Assembly (NCBI GenBank): GCA_037128175.1 | Contig: JBAXWY010000002.1 | Coordinates: 64,001 to 128,000, forward strand | Source: Methanothrix sp. | Lineage (GTDB): Archaea > Halobacteriota > Methanosarcinia > Methanotrichales > Methanotrichaceae | DNA: 64,000 nt | Reading direction: 5' to 3' | In this document: positions 3,329 to 31,444 of the stretch, piece by piece | Numbering within the stretch: the first letter of the stretch is position 1 | Layout: each line of letters starts with the position of its first letter | Notes under the pieces: model-generated | The model's database searches: none | The model's input: the letters and a program-made list of their open reading frames with translations, nothing else | What the model was told of the DNA's origin: nothing | Program-made: the position numbers and the translations under genes

Positions 3329-3426
3329 TGCGTCGACCGGGATTCGAACCCGGGTTGTAGGCTTGCTTCGCAGAGAATCAAAATCTGCCTGGAAGGCCCA
3401 AGTCATAACCACTAGACCATCGACGC
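3329..3426 (-). tRNA. tRNA-Gly(TCC) with 26-nt intron at position 37/38 (intron 3364-3389)
   Basis: Reverse strand reads GCGTCGATGGTCTAGTGGTTATGACTTGGGCCTTCCA[GGCAGATTTTGATTCTCTGCGAAGCA]AGCCTACAACCCGGGTTCGAATCCCGGTCGACGCA; bulge-helix-bulge with CTTC/GAAG helix; CCA not encoded. Confidence 0.95.
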
Positions 3427-9999: not shown

Positions 10000-10176
10000 A
10001 TGACAGTAGTAAAGAGCGACGCAATGCTGCAACATGAGGTTTGGATCCATGAGGTAGTCACTCATAGACCCAAGCATATGAGAGAACAAGTGATGCACAT
10101 CGAGGTTAGAAACCTGGTTATGGCTGCTGCTGCTATATTGATAGTAGTAATTGCTGCTGTTGAAATGTTTAAATGA
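10000..10176 (+). CDS. 58-aa protein with C-terminal TM helix
   Basis: AAGGAGGT RBS then MTVVKSDAMLQHEVWIHEVVTHRPKHMREQVMHIEVRNLVMAAAAILIVVIAAVEMFK; followed by a hairpin terminator. Confidence 0.6.
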   Translation: MTVVKSDAMLQHEVWIHEVVTHRPKHMREQVMHIEVRNLVMAAAAILIVVIAAVEMFK

Positions 10177-10180
10177 TGTA

Positions 10181-10211
10181 GGCTGAAAAGGCCGGCTTTC
10201 CGGCCTTCGCC
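10181..10211. terminator. Hairpin between convergent genes
   Basis: AAGGCCGG-CTTT-CCGGCCTT. Confidence 0.6.
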
Positions 10212-10216
10212 CTATA

Positions 10217-10675
10217 TTATTGGAATTTGCAATTGCCTGATTCGATATCATTCAAATTTTTAACAATATTTGCTTTGTGGGCATTGGATAGCTTATGATA
10301 TTCACAGATCGTCAGCACCCGGTGAAGTTCATCGCGCTGCATTGAAGCAGTATGCTGGGCAACGTACAACATTGTTTCCAGATATTCTTTCTCTTTTATC
10401 ATATTTTCAATGATCTCTAAAAAAATCGCATCAAATTTTATCCCAGAAGTACCGATATCCTTGATCACTTTTACCAGTTTTTCGCTTGACTTTTGGCTGG
10501 CCATGTTGGCGGCCAAGGCTCTTTGAGCAAAATCCAGGGACGCTTCAGAAACCCCATTCAGTATTAGTTCGGACGCGAGTTTCTTCAGGGTCTTGCTCTG
10601 AAGAATAGTTTCAGATTCCAGAGCCAGAAAGGCTTCTGGGGTTATCTCTATTTTCGTGTATTTTGGGCCAGGCAT
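10217..10675 (-). CDS. Hypothetical protein with ribbon-helix-helix-like N-terminus
   Basis: KYTKIEITPEAFLALESETILQSKTLKKLASELI fits a beta-helix-helix pattern; GAGGTG RBS upstream. Confidence 0.6.
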   Translation of the reverse strand: MPGPKYTKIEITPEAFLALESETILQSKTLKKLASELILNGVSEASLDFAQRALAANMASQKSSEKLVKVIKDIGTSGIKFDAIFLEIIENMIKEKEYLETMLYVAQHTASMQRDELHRVLTICEYHKLSNAHKANIVKNLNDIESGNCKFQ

Positions 10676-10818
10676 TTTTCTCGCGGCACCTCATTTTTCA
10701 ATCCTTATGAGTTCCTCTATATCAATACTTATTCCAGAAAACTCGAAAATGATAAATACTAAGAAAAAAGATGAATTTGGAAAAAAGGAAAAATTACCAA
10801 ATCAGGAGGAACAAGAAA

Positions 10819-10914
10819 ATGAAGATTGGTCAACAGGAGTTGGGTGTGTATCCGTTGTGGGTAGGATTTTGGGTGGCTGCCATCGTCATATCGGTACTAT
10901 TGGGTCAGACTTAA
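10819..10914 (+). CDS. 31-aa single-TM microprotein
   Basis: AGGAGG RBS then MKIGQQELGVYPLWVGFWVAAIVISVLLGQT*; below ORF-track cutoff. Confidence 0.6.
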   Translation: MKIGQQELGVYPLWVGFWVAAIVISVLLGQT

Positions 10915-11142
10915 AGGAAGAGTAATTCAAAAAGAATTCATTATCGCAGGATTCATTCCTAGGGGGATTGACCTCGAACTCATCCCTTCATCCCTATTTT
11001 GCCTGGCCAACCGAGATATTACGAATCAAAAATGCATGCACCACTACTTTTCAAAGCATGAGAAAGCACAAAGTTTATGTGGGATGCTGGATGATAGGGC
11101 CCAAGTCTAGCGTATCCGATGCCCTAAATGGAGGTGAAAAAA

Positions 11143-11253
11143 ATGCCTAACATCATGGATCAATTAATCGCTTTGGTAATATTCGGTGCGAGCACAGTCA
11201 TACTGCCATACGTGTTCAACAAATGGTCTGATAGCAGAGCAGGCGTTAGATAA
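11143..11253 (+). CDS. 36-aa single-TM microprotein
   Basis: GGAGGTG RBS then MPNIMDQLIALVIFGASTVILPYVFNKWSDSRAGVR*. Confidence 0.65.
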   Translation: MPNIMDQLIALVIFGASTVILPYVFNKWSDSRAGVR

Positions 11254-11340
11254 ACTTGTTCTTTTCGATCCTGGCTCGTGCCAGGATCTGCATTACTATT
11301 TTCTCTATTTTATCGTGTCAATCCACGAATTGGAACTCCG

Positions 11341-11400
11341 AAGTCAAACGGCAGCGGTGCACACCGTCGCCAGCAGGACGGAACATGCGAGACACAGCTG
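11341..11400 (+). repeat. Degenerate palindromic mini-element (copy of 39559-39619)
   Basis: AAGTCAAACGGCAGCGGTGCACACC...GCCAGCA...CAT...GACACAGCTG aligns with 39559-39619. Confidence 0.65.
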
Positions 11401-11642
11401 ATTAAGAATATCCTCAAATTGGTCCTTCGCGAAGAAAAATCAATAGCTTTGCTCTAAGTATATCTGAATAGGATACCATTCCCTCAATCATTATCTAGAA
11501 GCTTTACATTTTGGCGAGGCGTCGAACTCTAAAACGAGTCAGGCCGATATCCTTTGATGCGCCCTAAGCGAACGTGATCATACCTGGAATTCCATCCAAG
11601 GATAGCATTGATAAGGCCCCTGGTCCAAAAACCATTTCCTGA

Positions 11643-11810
11643 ATGACAAAAGGAAGAATGATTCATTGTATCGGCTGTGGGGCTGAGTTCTCCACGGAGG
11701 AATTATTGATCGCCTGGCTTGAGGGCAAAATCCCTAACACAATCAGCTGTCTTGTTTGTGGCAAGCTTGAATCAAATCTCATGGAAAGACAAATCAAGGC
11801 AAGGGAATAA
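11643..11810 (+). CDS. 55-aa CxxC/CxxC zinc-finger microprotein
   Basis: MTKGRMIHCIGCGAEFSTEELLIAWLEGKIPNTISCLVCGKLESNLMERQIKARE*. Confidence 0.6.
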   Translation: MTKGRMIHCIGCGAEFSTEELLIAWLEGKIPNTISCLVCGKLESNLMERQIKARE

Positions 11811-11824
11811 GACAGGTACCCAAG

Positions 11825-11880
11825 CAAAAATTCTTATACTTCCAAGCTCACGTAAACTATGCCCAACGCCATGGGTTTAC
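11825..11880 (+). promoter_or_regulatory. TATA box plus GTAAAC-N17-GTTTAC operator, copy 1
   Basis: CTTATACTTCC; GTAAAC 11852-11857; GTTTAC 11875-11880. Confidence 0.75.
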
Positions 11881-11965
11881 ACCGAAATTGTGGTGGGGTT
11901 TATCCACTATCCGGCCTACAATAGAGGGCCAGCCAAAAAAAGGTACTGGCCCTCTATTTTCTTTT
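11865..11965 (+). ncRNA. Candidate structured sRNA, copy 1 of 3
   Basis: Homologous to 13840-13945 and 14529-14625; ends in 13-bp hairpin AATAGAGGGCCAG/CTGGCCCTCTATT plus T-run; no conserved ORF. Confidence 0.55.
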
Positions 11966-12009
11966 ATCAATTTCAATTATTAATCGGCACTGCGGTTACA
12001 GCTACAGCA

Positions 12010-12056
12010 AAAGCTTAATAGTATTGTAAACCTTATTCGCGAAAAAGAGTTTACAA
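12010..12056 (+). promoter_or_regulatory. TATA-like box plus TTGTAAAC-N17-GTTTACAA operator upstream of SSS transporter
   Basis: AAAAGCTTAATA; GTAAAC 12026-12031; GTTTAC 12049-12054. Confidence 0.75.
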
Positions 12057-12074
12057 TTTCGTGAGGCATGGTTT

Positions 12075-13430
12075 ATGAATCCGGCTGCCGTCGTAATAGT
12101 AATATATTTGATGGGGATGCTTGCCATCGGCGCTTGGGGGCACCGCCTGAAAGGACTGGAGGATTTCCACCTGGCGGGGCGGAGCATAAAACTGGTTCTT
12201 CTTACAGGCACTTTCTGTGCCACCATCATTGGTGCTTCGGCAACTCTTGGCATGACGGGCCTGGGCTTCAGCAAAGGCCTGCCGGGTGCATGGTGGATGC
12301 TCTCCGGTACGGCTGGACTGCTGGTGCTGGCGACTTTTTTTGCCGAGAAAGTAAGAGCTAGCGGATGCAGCACTCTGCCCGATTTGGTAGGATCATTTTA
12401 TGGGGAAAGCGTGAGGTTTGTCGCCTCCGCTCTCATTGTTATCTCCTGGGTGGGAGTCATTGCCGTGCAGATTGTGGCCTGCGGTAAAGTTCTTGGCGCC
12501 GTATTCGGAGGAAACGAGACCCTATTCATGGCAGCATGTACGGCCGTCTTCGTGCTCTACACAGCACACGGAGGACAGGGCTCGGTGATAAGGACAGACC
12601 TGGTACAGCTCATGATAATATTAGCAGGAATAATCGTCCTGTTTTTCAGAGCATTTGAGGCAGCCGGACCCGGATTGCTCTTTCGCCAGAGCTTTCCCAC
12701 TTCGGCAGAGATGGGCGGATGGGATGTACTTTCCATGCTACTGGTCGTCGGCTCGGCGTACCTGGTCGGGCCGGATATGTATTCTCGTTTGCTCTCTGCC
12801 CATACCCCGAGAGAAGCAAAGATATCAGCGGCGATCGCAGCCGTCATTCTCATTCCCCTGGCCCTCCTGATCACATCCCTGGGCATTTTTGCCCGGTCGC
12901 TTTACCCTGGCGCATCACCTGAGCAGGCCATTCCCGTGCTCCTGACAGGGCTTCTGTCGCCCGCCACGGAAGGCCTGGTGGCCGCAGCTCTCCTGGCGGC
13001 ATTCATGTCCTCAGCAGACACTAGCCTGATGACTGCTACTTCCATTCTAACTCTGGATATTTACAGAAAGGCAAGGCCGGCTTCTGGTGAAGAGAAGCTG
13101 ATGGCCATGTCAAGGCTTTTTGTGTTAATCATAGGGCTCTTGGCTTTGGCATTAGCGGTTTCCTTGCCCAGCATCATCAAGACTCTGCTTATCGCTTATA
13201 CCGTCTTTACCAGTGGTCTGCTCTTACCGGTTATTGCCGGATTTTACAGAGAGCGGCTGGGCCTTACGCCTTCCGGCGCGCTGGGAGCGCTGCTGGGAGG
13301 CGGAGTAACTGCGATCTTCCTGGGCCAGACGTATCCTCTGCTTGGCATGACGGTCTCCGCAGCATTCCTATTCGGGGTAAGCTGGTTAGAGAGACAGTAT
13401 ACGGAGCAGGAATGCAAAAGCGTGGTTTAG
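12075..13430 (+). CDS. Sodium:solute symporter (PanF/PutP/SMVT family), candidate vitamin transporter
   Basis: DFHLAGRS, YTAHGG..SVIRTDLVQ, LAAFMSSADT; many TM helices. Confidence 0.9.
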   Translation: MNPAAVVIVIYLMGMLAIGAWGHRLKGLEDFHLAGRSIKLVLLTGTFCATIIGASATLGMTGLGFSKGLPGAWWMLSGTAGLLVLATFFAEKVRASGCSTLPDLVGSFYGESVRFVASALIVISWVGVIAVQIVACGKVLGAVFGGNETLFMAACTAVFVLYTAHGGQGSVIRTDLVQLMIILAGIIVLFFRAFEAAGPGLLFRQSFPTSAEMGGWDVLSMLLVVGSAYLVGPDMYSRLLSAHTPREAKISAAIAAVILIPLALLITSLGIFARSLYPGASPEQAIPVLLTGLLSPATEGLVAAALLAAFMSSADTSLMTATSILTLDIYRKARPASGEEKLMAMSRLFVLIIGLLALALAVSLPSIIKTLLIAYTVFTSGLLLPVIAGFYRERLGLTPSGALGALLGGGVTAIFLGQTYPLLGMTVSAAFLFGVSWLERQYTEQECKSVV

Positions 13431-13450
13431 ACGACTTTGCATTCAACGAT

Positions 13451-13505
13451 AAAGCATTTATACTTCCATGTAAATGTAAACCCGAACCAATCACATGGGC
13501 TTACA
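13451..13505 (+). promoter_or_regulatory. TATA box plus GTAAAC-N17-GCTTAC operator upstream of 52-aa protein
   Basis: AAAGCATTTATACTTCC (same string as copy 3); GTAAAC 13476-13481; GCTTAC 13499-13504. Confidence 0.75.
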
Positions 13506-13535
13506 ATTGTGCGTAATAATGAGGAGGGAAAAGAA

Positions 13536-13694
13536 ATGCAAACAAGTGGCATGGTGAGTGCAGTATTGTTTATTGGAGGTATCGCCGCGATATTCACATC
13601 AGGCGGCAATACTATGATGATGGTTATTGGGGATGTATGTGTTGCAGCCGCTGGCATAGCCATGGTTGCTTTGGGAAGCAAAAAAGCTGCCTAG
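13536..13694 (+). CDS. 52-aa two-TM microprotein
   Basis: GAGGAGG RBS then MQTSGMVSAVLFIGGIAAIFTSGGNTMMMVIGDVCVAAAGIAMVALGSKKAA*. Confidence 0.7.
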   Translation: MQTSGMVSAVLFIGGIAAIFTSGGNTMMMVIGDVCVAAAGIAMVALGSKKAA

Positions 13695-13736
13695 GTCGCA
13701 GCCCAAATATATATTTTTTGGTTTCTTGAATGAATA

Positions 13737-13757
13737 ACCCCTGGCTTGCTGCAGGGT
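13737..13757 (-). repeat. GCAAGC-loop palindrome remnant
   Basis: Reverse strand ACCCTGCAGCAAGCCAGGGGT; resembles hairpins near 39580 and 35306. Confidence 0.4.
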
Positions 13758-13839
13758 GCATCTTTTTGCAGTCATCTTTACAGAGAACTGCCGGGCCTTA
13801 TGCTATTTTGCGCGCTGCAATGATCATAAAATGCAGGTG

Positions 13840-13945
13840 AAAAGAGGATAGAGGGGGCCGGTATTCCCTTACTGGCCCCTAATTTTGGGCGGATGATGGC
13901 CAAATCGGACCGCAACGCAGCGGTTCTGTAAACCCATGCCATTGG
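13840..13945 (-). ncRNA. Candidate structured sRNA, copy 2 of 3
   Basis: Reverse strand GGTTTAC-AGA-ACCGC/GCGGT hairpin, CATCATCC, GGGGCCAGTA/TACCGGCCCC hairpin, TATCCTCTTTT. Confidence 0.55.
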
Positions 13946-13984
13946 GCAGAGTTTACATCGGCTCGGGAGTATAAATGCTTTTTC
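13928..13984 (-). promoter_or_regulatory. TATA box plus GTAAAC-N17-GTTTAC operator, copy 2
   Basis: Plus strand GTAAAC 13928-13933, GTTTAC 13951-13956, TATAAATGCTTTTT from 13970. Confidence 0.75.
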
Positions 13985-13999
13985 GTACCTTCTATCAAA

Positions 14000-14506
14000 T
14001 CAAATGTCCCGCGCCTTGATCCAAACAACGATGTTGTGGGTGTTTTTGCTCAATTTATAACCTCTGCGTCGCAGTGCAGTTCTAACACAGTCGCGGTCTA
14101 CTCCATTTATTTTCGCGATCCTGCCAATTTCAGATCTATCAAAAAATTGTAGCTGTCTGGCTTCGCATTTGGCAATATAATCCTCCAAGGAGGCGATCCT
14201 TTTGTTATGATTCATGCGTTCGCCTTCCTTACTCTTCCAGATCATTCGGCCGTGACCGTTATTGGTCAATTGATAGCCGAGCCTTCTAAGCTCACAGCGA
14301 ATTCGCTCCGGAGATAAGCCAAAACGACCTGCTATGCATTGGACCTCTCGGCGATCATAGATGCAGGATCTAAAATGGCTGCTATTTGAAAGATAAATTT
14401 CGAGGTTGTGAATAGTCTTATCAGTCTGTTGGGTTACAGGTGGGTTTACTGAATCTAAACTGGTTTTCAGTATGCACTTTGTCACATTCGCCTTGGCTGG
14501 AAGCAT
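14000..14506 (-). CDS. Hypothetical protein with two tandem winged-helix-like repeats
   Basis: YDRREVQCIAGRFGLSPERIRCELRRLGYQLTNNGHGRMIW vs FDRSEIGRIAKINGVDRDCVRTALRRRGYKLSKNTHNIVVW; start uncertain (14620, 14506, internal 14215). Confidence 0.7.
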   Translation of the reverse strand: MLPAKANVTKCILKTSLDSVNPPVTQQTDKTIHNLEIYLSNSSHFRSCIYDRREVQCIAGRFGLSPERIRCELRRLGYQLTNNGHGRMIWKSKEGERMNHNKRIASLEDYIAKCEARQLQFFDRSEIGRIAKINGVDRDCVRTALRRRGYKLSKNTHNIVVWIKARDI

Positions 14507-14528
14507 CTTTGGATGATTGGCTGTGATT

Positions 14529-14625
14529 GAGGATAGAAGGCCAGTATTCTCTTGCCGACCCTCAATCGTATGGTGGATGATGACAGAACCCCCTCCACAA
14601 TGCGGCGTAAACCTCCACATTGAGG
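14529..14625 (-). ncRNA. Candidate structured sRNA or leader, copy 3 of 3
   Basis: Reverse strand GGTTTAC, CCGC/GTGG hairpin, CATCATCC, GAGGGTCGG/CTGGCCTTC hairpin (3 G-U pairs), TATCCTC. Confidence 0.55.
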
Positions 14626-14662
14626 TGTGGTTTACAGCGCTTGGAAGTATAAATGCTTTTTC
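14607..14662 (-). promoter_or_regulatory. TATA box plus GTAAAC-N17-GTTTAC operator, copy 3
   Basis: Plus strand GTAAAC 14607-14612, GTTTAC 14630-14635, TATAAATGCTTTTT from 14648. Confidence 0.75.
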
Positions 14663-14708
14663 GCGTGTCGTGCATTTAGCACGGAAAAGAAGACGGTAGA
14701 AAAGGCTA

Positions 14709-15524
14709 TTACTCGAAGTTTTCGGGAATGGATTTGTCCAGGAAGCTGGCTATGCCTCCCGGATAATAGACCTCCAATGCATCGAGTTCCGCCATCTTTC
14801 TTGGATCAAATGAGTGCGATTTCATATATTTCTTGAACCTTTCTTGGTTCTCTTTCGAATCAATACTTCCCTGGACCAGTGGGATCTTAAGCTCCATAAC
14901 CTGATCGGGCTTGAGACCAAGGCATTTTACTCTGATATCTGCATTGCTTCCCGGTGGCTTTAATTTTGCAATCTTCGTCGCCAAATCCTGGCAAAAGAAC
15001 GCACTGCCGGAACTCAGGTCGGAGAGACAGAGAATGACGGTCGGAGAGTCGCAGCGCCGGTACAGGGCTTCGATGGCCTCCTCCGAGGCACTGCCACTGA
15101 CCGAGACGAGGGTTACGTTGTGTTTCTCACAGACAGGACCTATTAATGGATTTAGCGCGGACTTATTCAGCCAAACTTCCATGGAATTGGATCTTCTGGG
15201 AGAACTCTCCGACAAAAACACGTGCTCTCCCGGAATCTCATCCAGAATGGCATCCGTTGGAATGAAACCCAGCTTTCTTGCTTTGCTCATCCACTTGGAA
15301 AGCTTCTCGCCATCGCTATCATGGTAAGGCCGTGTGATCCGAATCTCGCCTACGAACCATCCACAAATAGGATAATCTGTCTCCTTCCTTTGCATCGCAT
15401 AGTAAAACATGGCTCGAAGCGTGGTCCTCGATCTGCCGATGTCTCTTACAAAATTACGATATACCTCTGCCAACCACCGGGACTTGGTTCGATCCGTTTC
15501 AGTATCTACAAATGGTTCGGTCAT
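14709..15524 (-). CDS. Topo VI-A/Spo11-like (winged-helix + TOPRIM) protein with degenerate active site
   Basis: TTLRAMFYY, KARKLGFIP...ILD, EVWLNKSAL, ILCLSDLSSGS, LGLKPDQV..LKIP, ELDAL; start at MTEPF assumed. Confidence 0.75.
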   Translation of the reverse strand: MTEPFVDTETDRTKSRWLAEVYRNFVRDIGRSRTTLRAMFYYAMQRKETDYPICGWFVGEIRITRPYHDSDGEKLSKWMSKARKLGFIPTDAILDEIPGEHVFLSESSPRRSNSMEVWLNKSALNPLIGPVCEKHNVTLVSVSGSASEEAIEALYRRCDSPTVILCLSDLSSGSAFFCQDLATKIAKLKPPGSNADIRVKCLGLKPDQVMELKIPLVQGSIDSKENQERFKKYMKSHSFDPRKMAELDALEVYYPGGIASFLDKSIPENFE

Positions 15525-15695
15525 ATCTGTATTTCCTATTGATGCCAAAATATATAGATTAGAGCGTTTCCGCAAGTATACCATCCGAAAATAAAAAACG
15601 AAGATTCCTGAAGGTGCTGGATGGTGCAGAAGCTTTTTGGTTATGGAGCGGATACTTAATGAGGTGGCAAGTGCATGGACCATTGAGGTTAAGCA

Positions 15696-16055
15696 TTGAC
15701 AAAAAAATTCACAGATTTAGCATCCAGCGATCTGACCAAGCTTCCCAACATTTCGGAAAATCACTTTTGCATAGGCGTAGAGCGCATTTATCTGCATCTA
15801 TTTAACGAAAAGAATATGCACTGGTATATGGCGGAGTACGGGCCGATAAGCAAGAAATTCTTCGGATTTTTCGAGAACAGGTCCGACGGGATATCCTCTG
15901 GATTTTGTAGCCAGGAGGATCTGATGAAATGGTGCAAGAAGGGCGGACCATGGGAGCCAATGGTAGATGAGAACTGGAAGCCGACGGAGGCCAGAGAAGT
16001 CCTCTCTCTGCAGGGATATATCAAAATGATGATATGCTCACCGGATATGCTGTGA
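15696..16055 (+). CDS. DUF2958-like protein (mobile-element associated)
   Basis: KLP...HLF....WYMAEY....KFFGF......SGF.S.EDL.....D..WKP pattern. Confidence 0.55.
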   Translation: MTKKFTDLASSDLTKLPNISENHFCIGVERIYLHLFNEKNMHWYMAEYGPISKKFFGFFENRSDGISSGFCSQEDLMKWCKKGGPWEPMVDENWKPTEAREVLSLQGYIKMMICSPDML

Positions 16056-16358: not shown

Positions 16359-17294
16359 TCAAAGGTCCACTTCCAGTCCCAGAATGCTCTTCGAGCCGTT
16401 AAATACGTCTTTGGCGATCCAGGCGCACCCTTGTGCAGCTGCAGAGCTTTCCAGGGGCTGCACCTCTCTGCCCAGTAGCTCGGATACGCGCCGACTCAGC
16501 TTTGCGGCGGGGCTGCCGGCCAGAAATAGATCCGGATTCTCCACGCCCCGGTCGCGACAGAGGACGAGAAGGGCATTGATCTCCATGGCCGCGAATAATG
16601 ATAGGGATTCGAGGGCCTGAGTTCCTTCCTCGGGCAGGCATTGCTCCAGATTTGCCCGCCCCATCTTGGAGAGAATGCCGCCGCCGTTAAAGGCCTGGTT
16701 TGCCGTCATCTTGCCGGAATCGACATCTCTTATGGCCTCGACATCCAGCGGGCCCTGTATCAGTCCGGGGGCAAAGATGGGCGCGTCAATAGCGGCGACG
16801 ATCTTTCCCTGCAGCACGGCAAATGTAACGGTGTTGGAGCTGGCATCGCATACAATGAAGCTATGGCTTTTGCCCCTAAAAACGCCGTAGGCCAGGCCCA
16901 CCTTCTCCGGGCTCATGCCGTGGGAGAAGACCTTCAAACGGGGATCGATATCGCTGGCACGATGAATGCCGGGCAGAAGGATGGCCGGCCAGCCCGAGGC
17001 TTGGATGGCTTCAAAGACCCTGGTGCCGCCGCCCACATGCAGACCGGCTCCATCCTGCCGGACCAGGCCGCGGTTAGGTGCATCCTCTAGCCTCACAATC
17101 CTAGTTATGCCGTCTCCCATGGAGTAGCTGAGGGCTACCAGATCGACGGTCTCGTGGCCTAAATGCTGAGCAATCCGCTCTACAATATCTTCCGGAGAAA
17201 GGCGGCTGGCCTCTTGCCTGGCAAGATTCCAGCAGCGCCCCTCCGGGGTGGCAAATCTTATGGCGGTGGTTCCGTGGTCTACTCCTATGAACAT
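16359..17294 (-). CDS. Methanogenesis marker protein 12 (UPF0285)
   Basis: MFIGVDHGTTAIRFA, YSMGDG, GGGTRVF, SSNTVT, GPLD. Confidence 0.9.
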   Translation of the reverse strand: MFIGVDHGTTAIRFATPEGRCWNLARQEASRLSPEDIVERIAQHLGHETVDLVALSYSMGDGITRIVRLEDAPNRGLVRQDGAGLHVGGGTRVFEAIQASGWPAILLPGIHRASDIDPRLKVFSHGMSPEKVGLAYGVFRGKSHSFIVCDASSNTVTFAVLQGKIVAAIDAPIFAPGLIQGPLDVEAIRDVDSGKMTANQAFNGGGILSKMGRANLEQCLPEEGTQALESLSLFAAMEINALLVLCRDRGVENPDLFLAGSPAAKLSRRVSELLGREVQPLESSAAAQGCAWIAKDVFNGSKSILGLEVDL

Positions 17295-30262: not shown

Positions 30263-31444
30263 GTGTCTGAAGTTGTACTGGCCTATTCCGGCGGCCTGGA
30301 TACATCTGTTTGTATTCCGCTCCTCAAAGAGCGCTATGGATTTGATAGAATAGTCACCGTTCTGGTGGACGTAGGCCAGCCGCGCTCAGATATCGAGCGG
30401 GGAAACCGCAGAGCAAAGCAGCTGGCGGACGAGCACTACATCATAGATGCAAGAGAAGAGTTCGTAAAGGACTACATCTTTCCGCTCATCAAAGCCAACG
30501 GCTCTTATGAGGGATATGTTCTGGGAACGGCCATTGCCCGGCCGCTGATCGCCATCAAAGCAGTCGAGATCGCCAAGCAAAAAGGCATAAAGAACCTGGC
30601 GCACGGATGCACCGGTCGCGGCAACGACCAGCTGCGCTTCGAAGCCATCTTCCGGGCGACAGACTGCCGGGTCATAGCACCCATGCGAGAGTTGGACTTA
30701 GCCCGCGAATGGGAGATAGATTATGCGCGCGAGCACGGCATTGAAGTTACCGTAACCCGTGATCGGCCCTGGTCGATAGATGAGAACATCTGGTCCAGGT
30801 CCATTGAGGGAGGCCTTCTGGAGGACCCCTACTTCGAGCCGCCCGAGGAGATCTACGGCTGGACCAAAAAGCCGGATGCAAGCAAGAAGGCGCTGGTAGT
30901 GGAGATCGGATTTGTCCAGGGTGTTCCCGTCTCTTTGGACGGCGTGCCGATGGGTGGTGTTGAGCTGATTGAGAAGCTCAATTTGATGGGCGGCGAGCAC
31001 GGCGTGGGCAGGACGGATATGGTGGAGGACAGGGTGCTGGGCCTGAAGGCGCGCGAGAACTATGAGCATCCTGCTGCAACTATTATCCTCACGGCGCATA
31101 AGGACCTAGAGCATCTGGTCTTATCCCGGGCCGAGCTTCGCTTCAAGGTCATGGTGGATGAGGCCTGGTCGGAGCTGGCCTATATGGGCCTGGTGGAGGA
31201 TCCGCTATATCCTGATCTGAATGCCTTCCTGGATCAGTCCCAAAAGAGGGTCAACGGCTCGGTCAAGATGAAGCTCTACTGCGGAAATGCCATTCCCCTG
31301 GGCCGCCAATCGCCCGATGCACTCTATGCTCAGGACATGGTCTCCTTCGACTCCCAGACCTTGAGCCAGAAGGATGCTGAAGGCTTTGCCAAGTACCATG
31401 GCTTCCAGGCCAGGCTTCTCAAAAGGAAGCAACTTAAGAGCTAG
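30263..31444 (+). CDS. argG: Argininosuccinate synthase
   Basis: [38 protein letters not shown]; GTG start at 30263. Confidence 0.97.

Follow-up and report, generated by a model that had tools for sequence, protein, structure and literature searches.

The window analysed here, a 64,000-nt stretch of a Methanothrix sp. contig, contains three paralogous units of ~110 nt each, which lie among a sodium:solute symporter (SSS) gene, a small hydrophobic open reading frame (ORF) termed mem52 and a gene encoding a tandem winged-helix protein. The order of the locus is p219 - p152 - p55 - T1 - box - SSS - box - mem52 - T2 - winged-helix gene - T3 - p324, where T1, T2 and T3 are copies 1, 2 and 3 of the repeat (c1, c2 and c3) and the box is a 29-bp inverted repeat with the pattern GTAAAC-N17-GTTTAC. 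Aligned from their promoters, the units extend over 11815-11985 on the forward strand (T1) and over 13995-13825 (T2) and 14672-14500 (T3) on the reverse strand. A first-pass annotation had placed three copies of a structured non-coding element of about 100 nt here, and both a reading of the sequence and the alignment of the copies bear out its positions and strands.

The repeat units and the genes between them

The elements of the three units follow one another in identical order: an A-rich stretch resembling a B recognition element (BRE), a TATA element, the box, a short hairpin region, the motif CACTATCC or CATCATCC, a linker, a GC-rich hairpin (hereafter P3) and a tail, which reads TATCCTC or TATTTTC (consensus TATYYTC). 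Every element named in the first-pass annotation was recovered, namely GGTTTAC, the hairpins CACCG/TGGTG, ACCGC/GCGGT and CCGC/GTGG, the motif, the GC-rich hairpins and the TATYYTC tail, as were the single A-C mismatch in the GC-rich hairpin of copy 2 and the T-runs, which follow copies 1 and 2 only. GGTTTAC, however, is merely the downstream half of the box, which had been overlooked together with its fourth and fifth copies.

The body of the T1 RNA is predicted at 11860..11965 (+; minimum free energy fold z -3.39; covariance-model match 106.9 bits) and consists of a 5' hairpin (11861-11876), a second helix, P2 (11890-11910), whose 3' arm is CACTATC, and P3 (11920-11958), followed by the T-run at 11957-11965. 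The T1 box (11852..11880, +) is an exact match to the pattern, and 12 nt upstream of it lies a BRE/TATA-like promoter (11824..11839, +), an A-rich stretch followed by CTTATAC, that lines up with AAAGCATTTATAC in the promoters of copies 2 and 3. Orthologues of T1 are found at six related loci (L059, L060, L061, L062, L063 and L074). The T2 unit (13838..13956, -) comprises the box at 13928-13956, the body, P3 at 13854-13879, in which the A-C mismatch is itself conserved, the tail CTCTATCCTC and a T-run at 13840-13843; its BRE/TATA promoter, CGAAAAAGCATTTATAC at 13965..13985 (-), forms repeat D4 and is 92% identical to the T3 promoter. The T3 unit (14486..14635, -), which forms the 5' untranslated region (UTR) of the winged-helix gene, has its exact BRE/TATA promoter GCATTTATACTTCC at 14643..14663 (-), its box at 14607-14635, a 5' helix, P1, at 14595-14625, P2 at 14572-14593 and P3 at 14525-14567. 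T3 has no T-run, and its P3 is followed by a conserved AATCATCCAAAG and then by a ribosome-binding site.

When the 2.96-Mb genome was searched with a profile of the three copies, the only full matches were the three units (E 5e-43 to 5e-45), which indicates that the repeat is real and specific to this locus. The same profile also matched a promoter-only site at 13446-13511 (E 1.3e-06), and a profile of the body without the promoter returned the three units and nothing further at E<3 in the whole genome. Insertions and deletions in the alignments, both between paralogues and between orthologues, are not multiples of three, so that no ORF is conserved, in agreement with the first-pass annotation.

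Three protein-coding genes are interleaved with the units. The SSS gene (12075..13430, +; 451 aa) matches the Pfam family SSF (E 1.8e-36) and the NCBIfam sss superfamily, with no equivalog reached, and is a core gene of the genus, present in 52 of 59 genomes. The mem52 ORF (13536..13694, +; 52 aa) has a ribosome-binding site, GAGGAGGG, and is conserved at two related loci (L059 and L060), and it matched no family in Pfam or NCBIfam. The tandem winged-helix gene, as read from its translation, occupies 14000..14485 (-; 161 aa, GTG start). Its ORF could be extended to 206 aa, but the ATG start codons of its relatives align with the GTG at 14485, which makes copy 3 a 5'UTR of ~130-140 nt. Copy 3 does lead into the winged-helix ORF, as had been reported, yet it does not overlap the real coding region.

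The shared promoter and the 29-bp box

Each of the three copies has its own promoter, as first proposed; it is of the BRE/TATA kind, with AAAGCATTTATAC as the TATA region of copies 2 and 3 and AAAAATTCTTATAC as that of copy 1. Within the window, GTAAAC-N15-19-GTTTAC occurs four times, compared to none in 100 shuffles, and the exact box occurs four times in the 2.96-Mb genome, always within this 2.8-kb locus, while the reversed control pattern does not occur. The owners of the four exact boxes are the three units and the SSS gene, whose promoter (TATA at 12014-12021, box at 12026-12054, +) shows an arrangement that is repeated before SSS orthologues. A degenerate fifth box, GTAAAC-N17-GCTTAC (13477-13505), precedes the 52-aa membrane ORF; it was recognized by its match to the unit profile, belongs to a TATA-containing promoter region at 13458..13505 (+; repeats D1 and I1) and comes after a perfect copy of the c3 promoter. 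A relaxed box pattern gave ten strand matches in the same genome and six for its reversed control, and such matches were counted only where they lay in a proper promoter context.

The TATA element of archaeal promoters is centred ~26 nt before the transcription start. From this usual distance we infer that transcription of the units and of mem52 starts 2-6 nt downstream of GTAAAC, and that of SSS in the middle of the box spacer; at such a position within the box, a bound repressor would block the polymerase.

The regions upstream of SSS were then compared among 20 further genomes of the genus. In 17 of these a box resembling GT[A/C]AAC-N16-18-GTTTAC lies right after the TATA element (spacer N17 in ten, N16 in six and N18 in one), and the three SSS genes that lack it are the most distant orthologues, at 64-65% identity. 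All ten SSS loci that had been fetched earlier carry it as well. Because a related box precedes SSS orthologues across the genus, the box is best read as an ancestral control element of the transporter that the units share. Like an operator, it is an inverted repeat at a fixed place relative to TATA, and it recurs both at several promoters within one genome and at their orthologues; its presence at each copy argues, at the level of sequence, for control by a DNA-binding factor.

The first-pass annotation had allowed for control by a repressor. The neighbouring winged-helix protein does not fit as the repressor of the box in general: the box stands before SSS in 17 of the 20 further genomes, while the full tandem gene is found in only 7 of 59. 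Since boxes and stand-alone repeat units (T4, below) also occur in genomes without the gene, it is unlikely that the winged-helix protein is what binds the box in general, and the genus-wide occurrence of the box at SSS implies that the binder should be a core protein. One syntenic core protein, p152 (152 aa; 57 of 59 genus genomes), was considered and rejected as a candidate: it has the look of a ribbon-helix-helix protein by eye, but its match to Pfam ParD is at E 0.15 only, its structural model has a predicted local distance difference test (pLDDT) score of 72.9 and Foldseek returned nothing for it at E<=0.001.

A second SSS paralogue of the same genome (C30:29873-31207, 71% identical) is preceded by a TATA element and then GTCAAC-N16-GTTTAC-AATT at ~31229-31256 (-) of contig C30 of genome G000. 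Judged from these two promoters, both SSS transporters of the genome may answer to one factor.

Distribution of the units in the genus Methanothrix

BLASTN with copy 2 against 40 relatives returned only promoter-sized fragments (E>=0.0076), and homologues were found by pattern search and a covariance model instead. The exact box is present in 14 of the 58 other genus genomes (the reversed control has one site in each of four genomes). A profile search of the fetched box loci yielded 21 units, and a metagenome scan with the winged-helix protein yielded nine loci, one of which (L078) has the same sequence as the window and is left out of all counts. The covariance model built from 33 distinct units, R1, matches 15 of the 58 other genomes, 14 of them at E<=1e-11, giving a total of ~38 units in 16 of 59 genus genomes.

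Outside the genus, R1 matched none of 116 genomes from 26 other genera of the class sample. A pattern scan of 185,579 species genomes, one for each species, gave 12 stretches, ten of them in records titled Methanothrix, Methanotrichaceae or Methanosarcinales and two outside such records, with a few chance matches estimated for the 596 Gb scanned; the viral contigs of IMG/VR contained no pattern match. With Rfam 15 the only match in the whole window at the gathering score was a tRNA at 3329-3426, and in the region 11700-14800 at E<=10 the scan returned only two matches below threshold, antisense_SR1 (23.4 bits against a threshold of 45) and STnc470 (17.7 against 80 bits), each of them antisense to T1. 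The first-pass annotation had recognized no known RNA family in the units, and this stands. R1 being confined to the genus, together with the pattern scan, the empty viral set and the Rfam result, indicates that the units are a previously undescribed RNA family confined to the genus Methanothrix. Among the articles listed, literature searches found nothing on small RNAs (sRNAs) or regulatory RNAs of Methanothrix/Methanosaeta or on this motif.

C/D box sRNAs, which carry a C box (RUGAUGA) and a D box (CUGA), were also considered and set aside: AUGAUGA occurs only opposite copy 3, where the CUGA partner is missing, and copy 1 has no such motif.

The order of the locus is kept at two related loci (L059 and L060) and partly at three others (L061, L062 and L063), and the units fall into four orthologous types. 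T1 lies before SSS, T2 after the winged-helix gene on the same strand, and T3 is the leader of that gene; T4 is a stand-alone type that has a promoter, box and T-run and no gene downstream. There are 1-4 copies per genome, in syntenic places. At three loci, T4 (L065, 379-500; L066, 6040-6161; L067, 4840-4955) converges on a membrane ORF of 522-528 aa and ends at or in its stop region. This ORF follows one of 439-464 aa, a pair that we take to be TrkH/TrkA-like, and T4 might conceivably exert an antisense effect on the membrane gene at its 3' end. At another locus (L063, genome G074), the promoter and 5' half of T2 have been lost; what remains, CAUCAUCC, P3, tail and U-run, forms the 3'UTR of the winged-helix gene. 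On one metagenome contig (L077, 2529-2840), T2 and T4 stand in tandem after the winged-helix gene and are followed by an ORF that reads by eye as an IS110-like transposase. A tandem pair of this sort is bridged by RNA contigs from a related strain.

Structure of the units

Base pairing was assessed for P3 in a model-fitted alignment of 38 units from related genomes. P3 is present in all units, and 93.0% of 329 cells are paired, a share that falls to 38-62% if the partner columns are shifted. Three of its nine pairs have changed on both sides, in 19 cells (A-U/G-C at two positions), and none of 500 shuffles attains the paired percentage, the cell count or the covariation score of the actual alignment. 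Consistent with the earlier statement that stem substitutions mostly keep pairing via G-U, the mismatches of P3 on the transcribed strand comprise 33 G-U and 16 A-C, seven of the latter arising from the bulge register of T4. The units are thus structured, as had been claimed, and conserved in relatives with compensatory changes, in P3 and as variants in P2 and in P1 of the T3 type. The family has base pairs backed by covariation, among sequences that are closely related.

P1 is formed by CAAYGnn in the box spacer and nnCRUUG after GTTTAC. Variants of both arms occur among T3 units (CAAUGCGG/CCGCAUUG, CAAUGUAG/CUACAUUG, CAAUGCUGG/CCAGCGUUG and CAACGCU/AGCGUUG), and in this type the duplex energy is -15 to -23 kcal/mol with the own partner compared to -11 to -13 kcal/mol with swapped partners. 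Such covariation between the spacer and the sequence downstream points to pairing within a nucleic-acid strand rather than to a palindrome read by a protein, and would imply that the spacer is transcribed. For T1, T2 and T4 a short CCCA/UGGG hairpin is predicted in place of P1. P2 includes CAYYAUC in its 3' arm, with the variants GAUGGUGGA/UCCACUAUC, GAUAGUAG/CUACUAUC and AGA..GUGG/CCACUCU. The registers of P1 and P2 are shifted by one column between types, and each helix was scored by custom scripts instead of in a single structure string; support for both is partial. RNAalifold applied to the T3 subfamily proposed a different pairing, AUUGUG/UACGAU, with one-sided changes only.

The loop of P3 occurs in two versions that are near reverse complements of one another (alignment columns 86-99; for example, window 14541-14551 compared to L064 and L096). 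T2 and T3 have AAGAGAAU or AAGGGAAU, and T4 and the T3 unit of genome G061 have AUUCUUAU or AUUCUCAU. From the sequences this looks like inversion of the loop of a palindromic hairpin, and the two versions are possibly kissing-loop partners.

Expression of the locus

Contigs assembled from four metatranscriptome runs (one study, two samples) were mapped on 11600-14900. In three runs contigs end at 14612/14613, inside the T3 box, and in three runs at 13843, where the U-run of T2 begins; the interval between them, 13843-14613, is tiled by three contigs of one run with 0-5 mismatches. Contigs covering SSS start at 12042-12054, and those covering mem52, where coverage is deepest in the locus, start at 13495/13496. 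These ends agree with the T2 terminator and with the promoters as predicted, and the contigs show a single RNA that extends from T3 across the winged-helix gene as far as the T2 end, with carry-over of DNA possible. T1, T2 and T4 each combine a predicted promoter and a U-run end with the lack of a conserved ORF, as independent sRNA genes would, and T3 would instead be a UTR.

The winged-helix protein and other features of the window

The tandem winged-helix protein matched no family in Pfam or NCBIfam. Its family has 29 cluster representatives among 1.84 billion proteins, most of them single-domain proteins of ~80 aa, and in the genus one copy broken by stop codons was found besides the seven full genes. 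An AlphaFold2 model (pLDDT 90.6) contains two helix-helix-beta-hairpin repeats. In a Foldseek search with this model the best match was ScpB (E 1.4e-4), followed by ESCRT-II, RPC62 and the domains of SelB that bind the selenocysteine insertion sequence (SECIS), at template modelling (TM) scores of ~0.25-0.33, while a search of the ESM Atlas brought no useful lead (best score 0.78). The model supports a winged helix as the fold of ORF 14000-14485.

Across window positions 10000-16000 the G+C content is 0.41-0.48, compared to 0.52-0.60 in the flanks. The proteins p152, p55, p324 and p119 near the locus matched no family in Pfam or NCBIfam. A 41-nt piece of the 3' coding part of SSS (13243-13283) recurs with 78% identity at 13777-13817, in the intergenic region just beyond the end of T2 (repeat D2), and may be the scar of a rearrangement that placed T2, the winged-helix gene and T3 beside the transporter. 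Elsewhere in the window, a 311-aa ORF at 16359-17294 (-) is methanogenesis marker protein 12 (TIGR03281, E 1.2e-88), which fits a methanogen host, and the tRNA match at 3329-3426 (-) spans 98 nt on a 71-position model, which suggests an intron-bearing tRNA gene.

A proposed family of sibling sRNAs linked to the transporter operator

We judge it somewhat more probable than its negation that the units are a new, genus-restricted family of sibling sRNAs that is switched together with the transporter and acts post-transcriptionally. Each unit would be transcribed from its own archaeal BRE/TATA promoter, with a start inside the box, and one genus-wide DNA-binding factor would switch the transporter, mem52, the RNAs and the winged-helix gene together, as the similar box in SSS promoters across the genus suggests. 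The RNA, of ~105-115 nt, would have a 5' helix (strong in copy 3), a middle hairpin with CAYYAUC as its 3' arm, the GC-rich 3' hairpin and UAUCCUC. Copies 1 and 2 and T4 would end at the U-run as free RNAs, and copy 3, without a U-run, would continue as the leader of the winged-helix mRNA, which copy 2 would also close as its 3'UTR. Action in trans could proceed through the unpaired CU-rich CAUCAUCC and UAUCCUC(C); we take these stretches to resemble the archaeal anti-Shine-Dalgarno sequence, and on that likeness they would mask the ribosome-binding sites of targets. The units and the winged-helix gene would have been wired into the transporter regulon in one sub-lineage. Of the repressor-controlled sRNA family proposed in the first-pass annotation, this retains a non-coding structured family under an operator-like box, and it does not take the winged-helix neighbour as the general repressor.

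One further observation concerns T1 and SSS: T1 11883-11891 (CGAAATTGT) is perfectly complementary over 9 nt to the SSS 5'UTR at 12053-12061 (ACAATTTCG), directly after the box.

Several observations weigh against the sibling-sRNA reading. The contigs reveal neither strand, nor true 5' ends, nor discrete ~100-nt RNAs, and may include DNA carry-over. A contig without mismatches at 13843-14156 runs from the winged-helix gene through the T2 promoter, and contigs from a related strain bridge the 3' part of one unit and the box of the next; both indicate read-through or DNA. The T1 body at 11883-11965 is almost without contig cover in the four runs, which shows nothing either way. The 5' arm of P1 lies upstream of the contig ends at 14612/14613, so that its transcription is predicted from promoter geometry. 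With respect to structure, the measures of P3 based on the number of pairs or of pair types do not exceed those of shuffles (419/500 and 499/500) in an alignment that was itself fitted to that structure, P1 in T1, T2 and T4 is no better than with swapped partners, and the register of P2 varies between unit types. RNAalifold on MAFFT alignments recovers part of P3 only, the folding z-scores are -3.39 for c1, -0.09 for c2 and -1.82 for c3, with similar values on the opposite strands, and the units, coming from closely related genomes and metagenome contigs, are not independent. With respect to targets, the 16S 3' end with the anti-Shine-Dalgarno sequence was not found in the assembly, and the ATCC motif is only weakly enriched, its observed count being reached by 156, 185 and 46 of 2000 shuffles. 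The target prediction that the first-pass annotation had proposed, run with RNAduplex against the start regions of ten genes of the locus, gave long loop-rich duplexes and no specific target. The match between T1 (CGAAAUUGU) and the SSS 5'UTR is kept in the window and in L060, is weaker in L059 and is lost in L061-L063.

Alternative explanations

The main alternative, which we hold to be possible but unlikely, is that the RNA module (CAYYAUCC, P3 and UAUCCUC) is a binding site of the tandem winged-helix protein, which would regulate its own mRNA through the UTR copies (T3 and T2), with the free copies serving as decoys that titrate the protein in the way CsrB titrates CsrA. The co-occurrence of units and gene is what speaks for it: T3 lies directly upstream of the gene in all seven genomes and at all metagenome loci with the full gene, units of types T1-T3 are found only in genomes that have the gene, and the T2 remnant of L063 (G074) retains the module as the gene's 3'UTR. 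The protein has two predicted winged helices, its Foldseek list includes the SECIS-binding SelB domains (1wsu, 2uwm and 2pjp), and motifs of the AUCC type occur 2-3 times per transcript. This alternative accounts for the UTR copies and the co-occurrence but not for the orphan T4 units, which occur in genomes without the tandem gene (G049, G057, G060, G002, G021 and G011). Moreover, the Foldseek TM scores are ~0.25-0.33 and the best matches, ScpB, ESCRT-II and RPC62, are not RNA binders; DNA is the usual ligand of winged helices; and the P3 loop sequence is variable, being either purine-rich or pyrimidine-rich. A fuller circuit of this kind, in which the winged-helix protein reads the hairpin RNA as SelB reads SECIS, controls its own mRNA through both UTRs and is sponged by sibling sRNAs that the transporter operator switches, seems to us less likely still.

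It is also rather improbable that the units have no RNA function and are recently duplicated DNA cassettes, each a promoter and operator plus a hairpin and T-run terminator, which act as extra operators or insulators. Such cassettes would explain why the most invariant parts are TATA, GTAAAC and GTTTAC, why P3 with a T-run resembles a terminator and why folding z-scores of the sense strand are no better than those of the antisense strand, and all carriers are closely related. The paralogues are old, however, with orthologues of the types in species whose SSS is 84-93% identical, and the ~60 nt between the box and P3 retain their motifs despite this age. Compensatory changes in P1, P2 and P3 and the 33 G-U compared to 16 A-C on the transcribed strand point further to an RNA. 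Archaeal termination requires oligo-T only, and T3 retains P3 without a T-run, so that P3 cannot be a terminator there.

That the units are cis-acting leaders, of the riboswitch or attenuator kind, which control the downstream gene through P3 as a terminator, had been offered in the first-pass annotation and is very unlikely. T1 does lie upstream of SSS and T3 upstream of the winged-helix gene, and AUUGUGG can pair with 5' CCCAAYG, with CCACUAUC or with the linker ACAAU, but no alternative pairing holds across all unit types and T3 lacks the T-run. Copy 2 and the orphan T4 are convergent to the next gene and have none downstream, and SSS, beyond the T1 terminator, is preceded by a TATA and a box of its own, where its RNA contigs start.

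Small leaderless peptides from the ATG of CCATGGGTTTAC, or a miniature inverted-repeat transposable element (MITE), can be given hardly any weight: although ATGGG is conserved in T1, T2 and T4, ORFs of 17-34 codons can be read and the G+C content of the locus is below that of its flanks, the ATG is missing in most T3 units and the frame is shifted by non-triplet insertions and deletions between types and between orthologues (as in the P3 loop, L064 compared to L066), and against a MITE, which the first-pass annotation had named as a match that would count against a new family, stand 1-4 syntenic copies per genome (here three in one locus), no MITE-like flanking repeats seen and no match in viral contigs.

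Relation to known regulatory systems

In bacteria, sibling sRNAs that carry the operator of their regulon include RyhB and PrrF1/2, which lie behind Fur boxes, and Qrr1-5. The Methanothrix units resemble these in being several paralogous genes of ~100 nt, each with its own promoter bearing a regulon operator, a hairpin and U-run and conserved unpaired stretches; unlike them, they have archaeal BRE/TATA promoters and an operator that is a 6-N17-6 inverted repeat, and copies double as the 5'UTR or 3'UTR of a neighbour. Among Methanosarcinales, sRNA154 and sRNA41 are transcriptionally controlled, and some sRNAs act at ribosome-binding sites. The units share with the sRNAs of Methanosarcina mazei the transcriptional control of sRNA genes, but no sequence or Rfam relationship to them was found, and the units were found in the genus Methanothrix only. 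A review (PMC4152357) and a second article (PMC11549558) concern this field.

Two further systems bear on the winged-helix protein. The units resemble CsrA/CsrB-type titration, and autoregulatory leaders that imitate a protein's RNA target, in that one RNA module occurs both in the UTRs of a protein's own mRNA and in free sRNAs beside the gene, but the Methanothrix protein is a tandem winged helix and not of the CsrA fold, orphan copies exist without the protein and binding is putative. SelB with SECIS (PDB 1wsu, 2uwm and 2pjp) likewise has tandem winged-helix domains and demonstrates that an RNA hairpin can be recognized by domains of this kind; here the match is structural only (TM ~0.3, 14-17% identity), there is no EF-Tu-like part, and ScpB, ESCRT-II and RPC62 score equally well or better. 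The geometry of the box is like that of NikR-type operators, in which two 6-bp half-sites lie ~16 bp apart: two inverted hexamers with 16-17 bp spacing that overlap the promoter. A search of Pfam and NCBIfam found no NikR family protein adjoining the locus. What is unusual here is the combination of a shared, widely spaced operator with the presence of copies in the 5'UTR and the 3'UTR of a lineage-specific winged-helix gene, regulon-linked sRNAs being otherwise of a known kind.

Methanothrix is a major acetate-using producer of methane in wetlands, sediments and digesters. The locus is a compact, testable regulon in which one operator would connect a transporter, a small membrane protein, a tandem winged-helix protein and up to four sibling RNAs, and the RNA family could enter Rfam. 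An inducer of the box, if found, would point to the substrate of the transporter and would also supply an inducible promoter and an RNA toolkit for an organism with few genetic tools. The titration circuit, if true, would be the first system of the CsrA/CsrB type in a methanogen that relies on a winged-helix protein.

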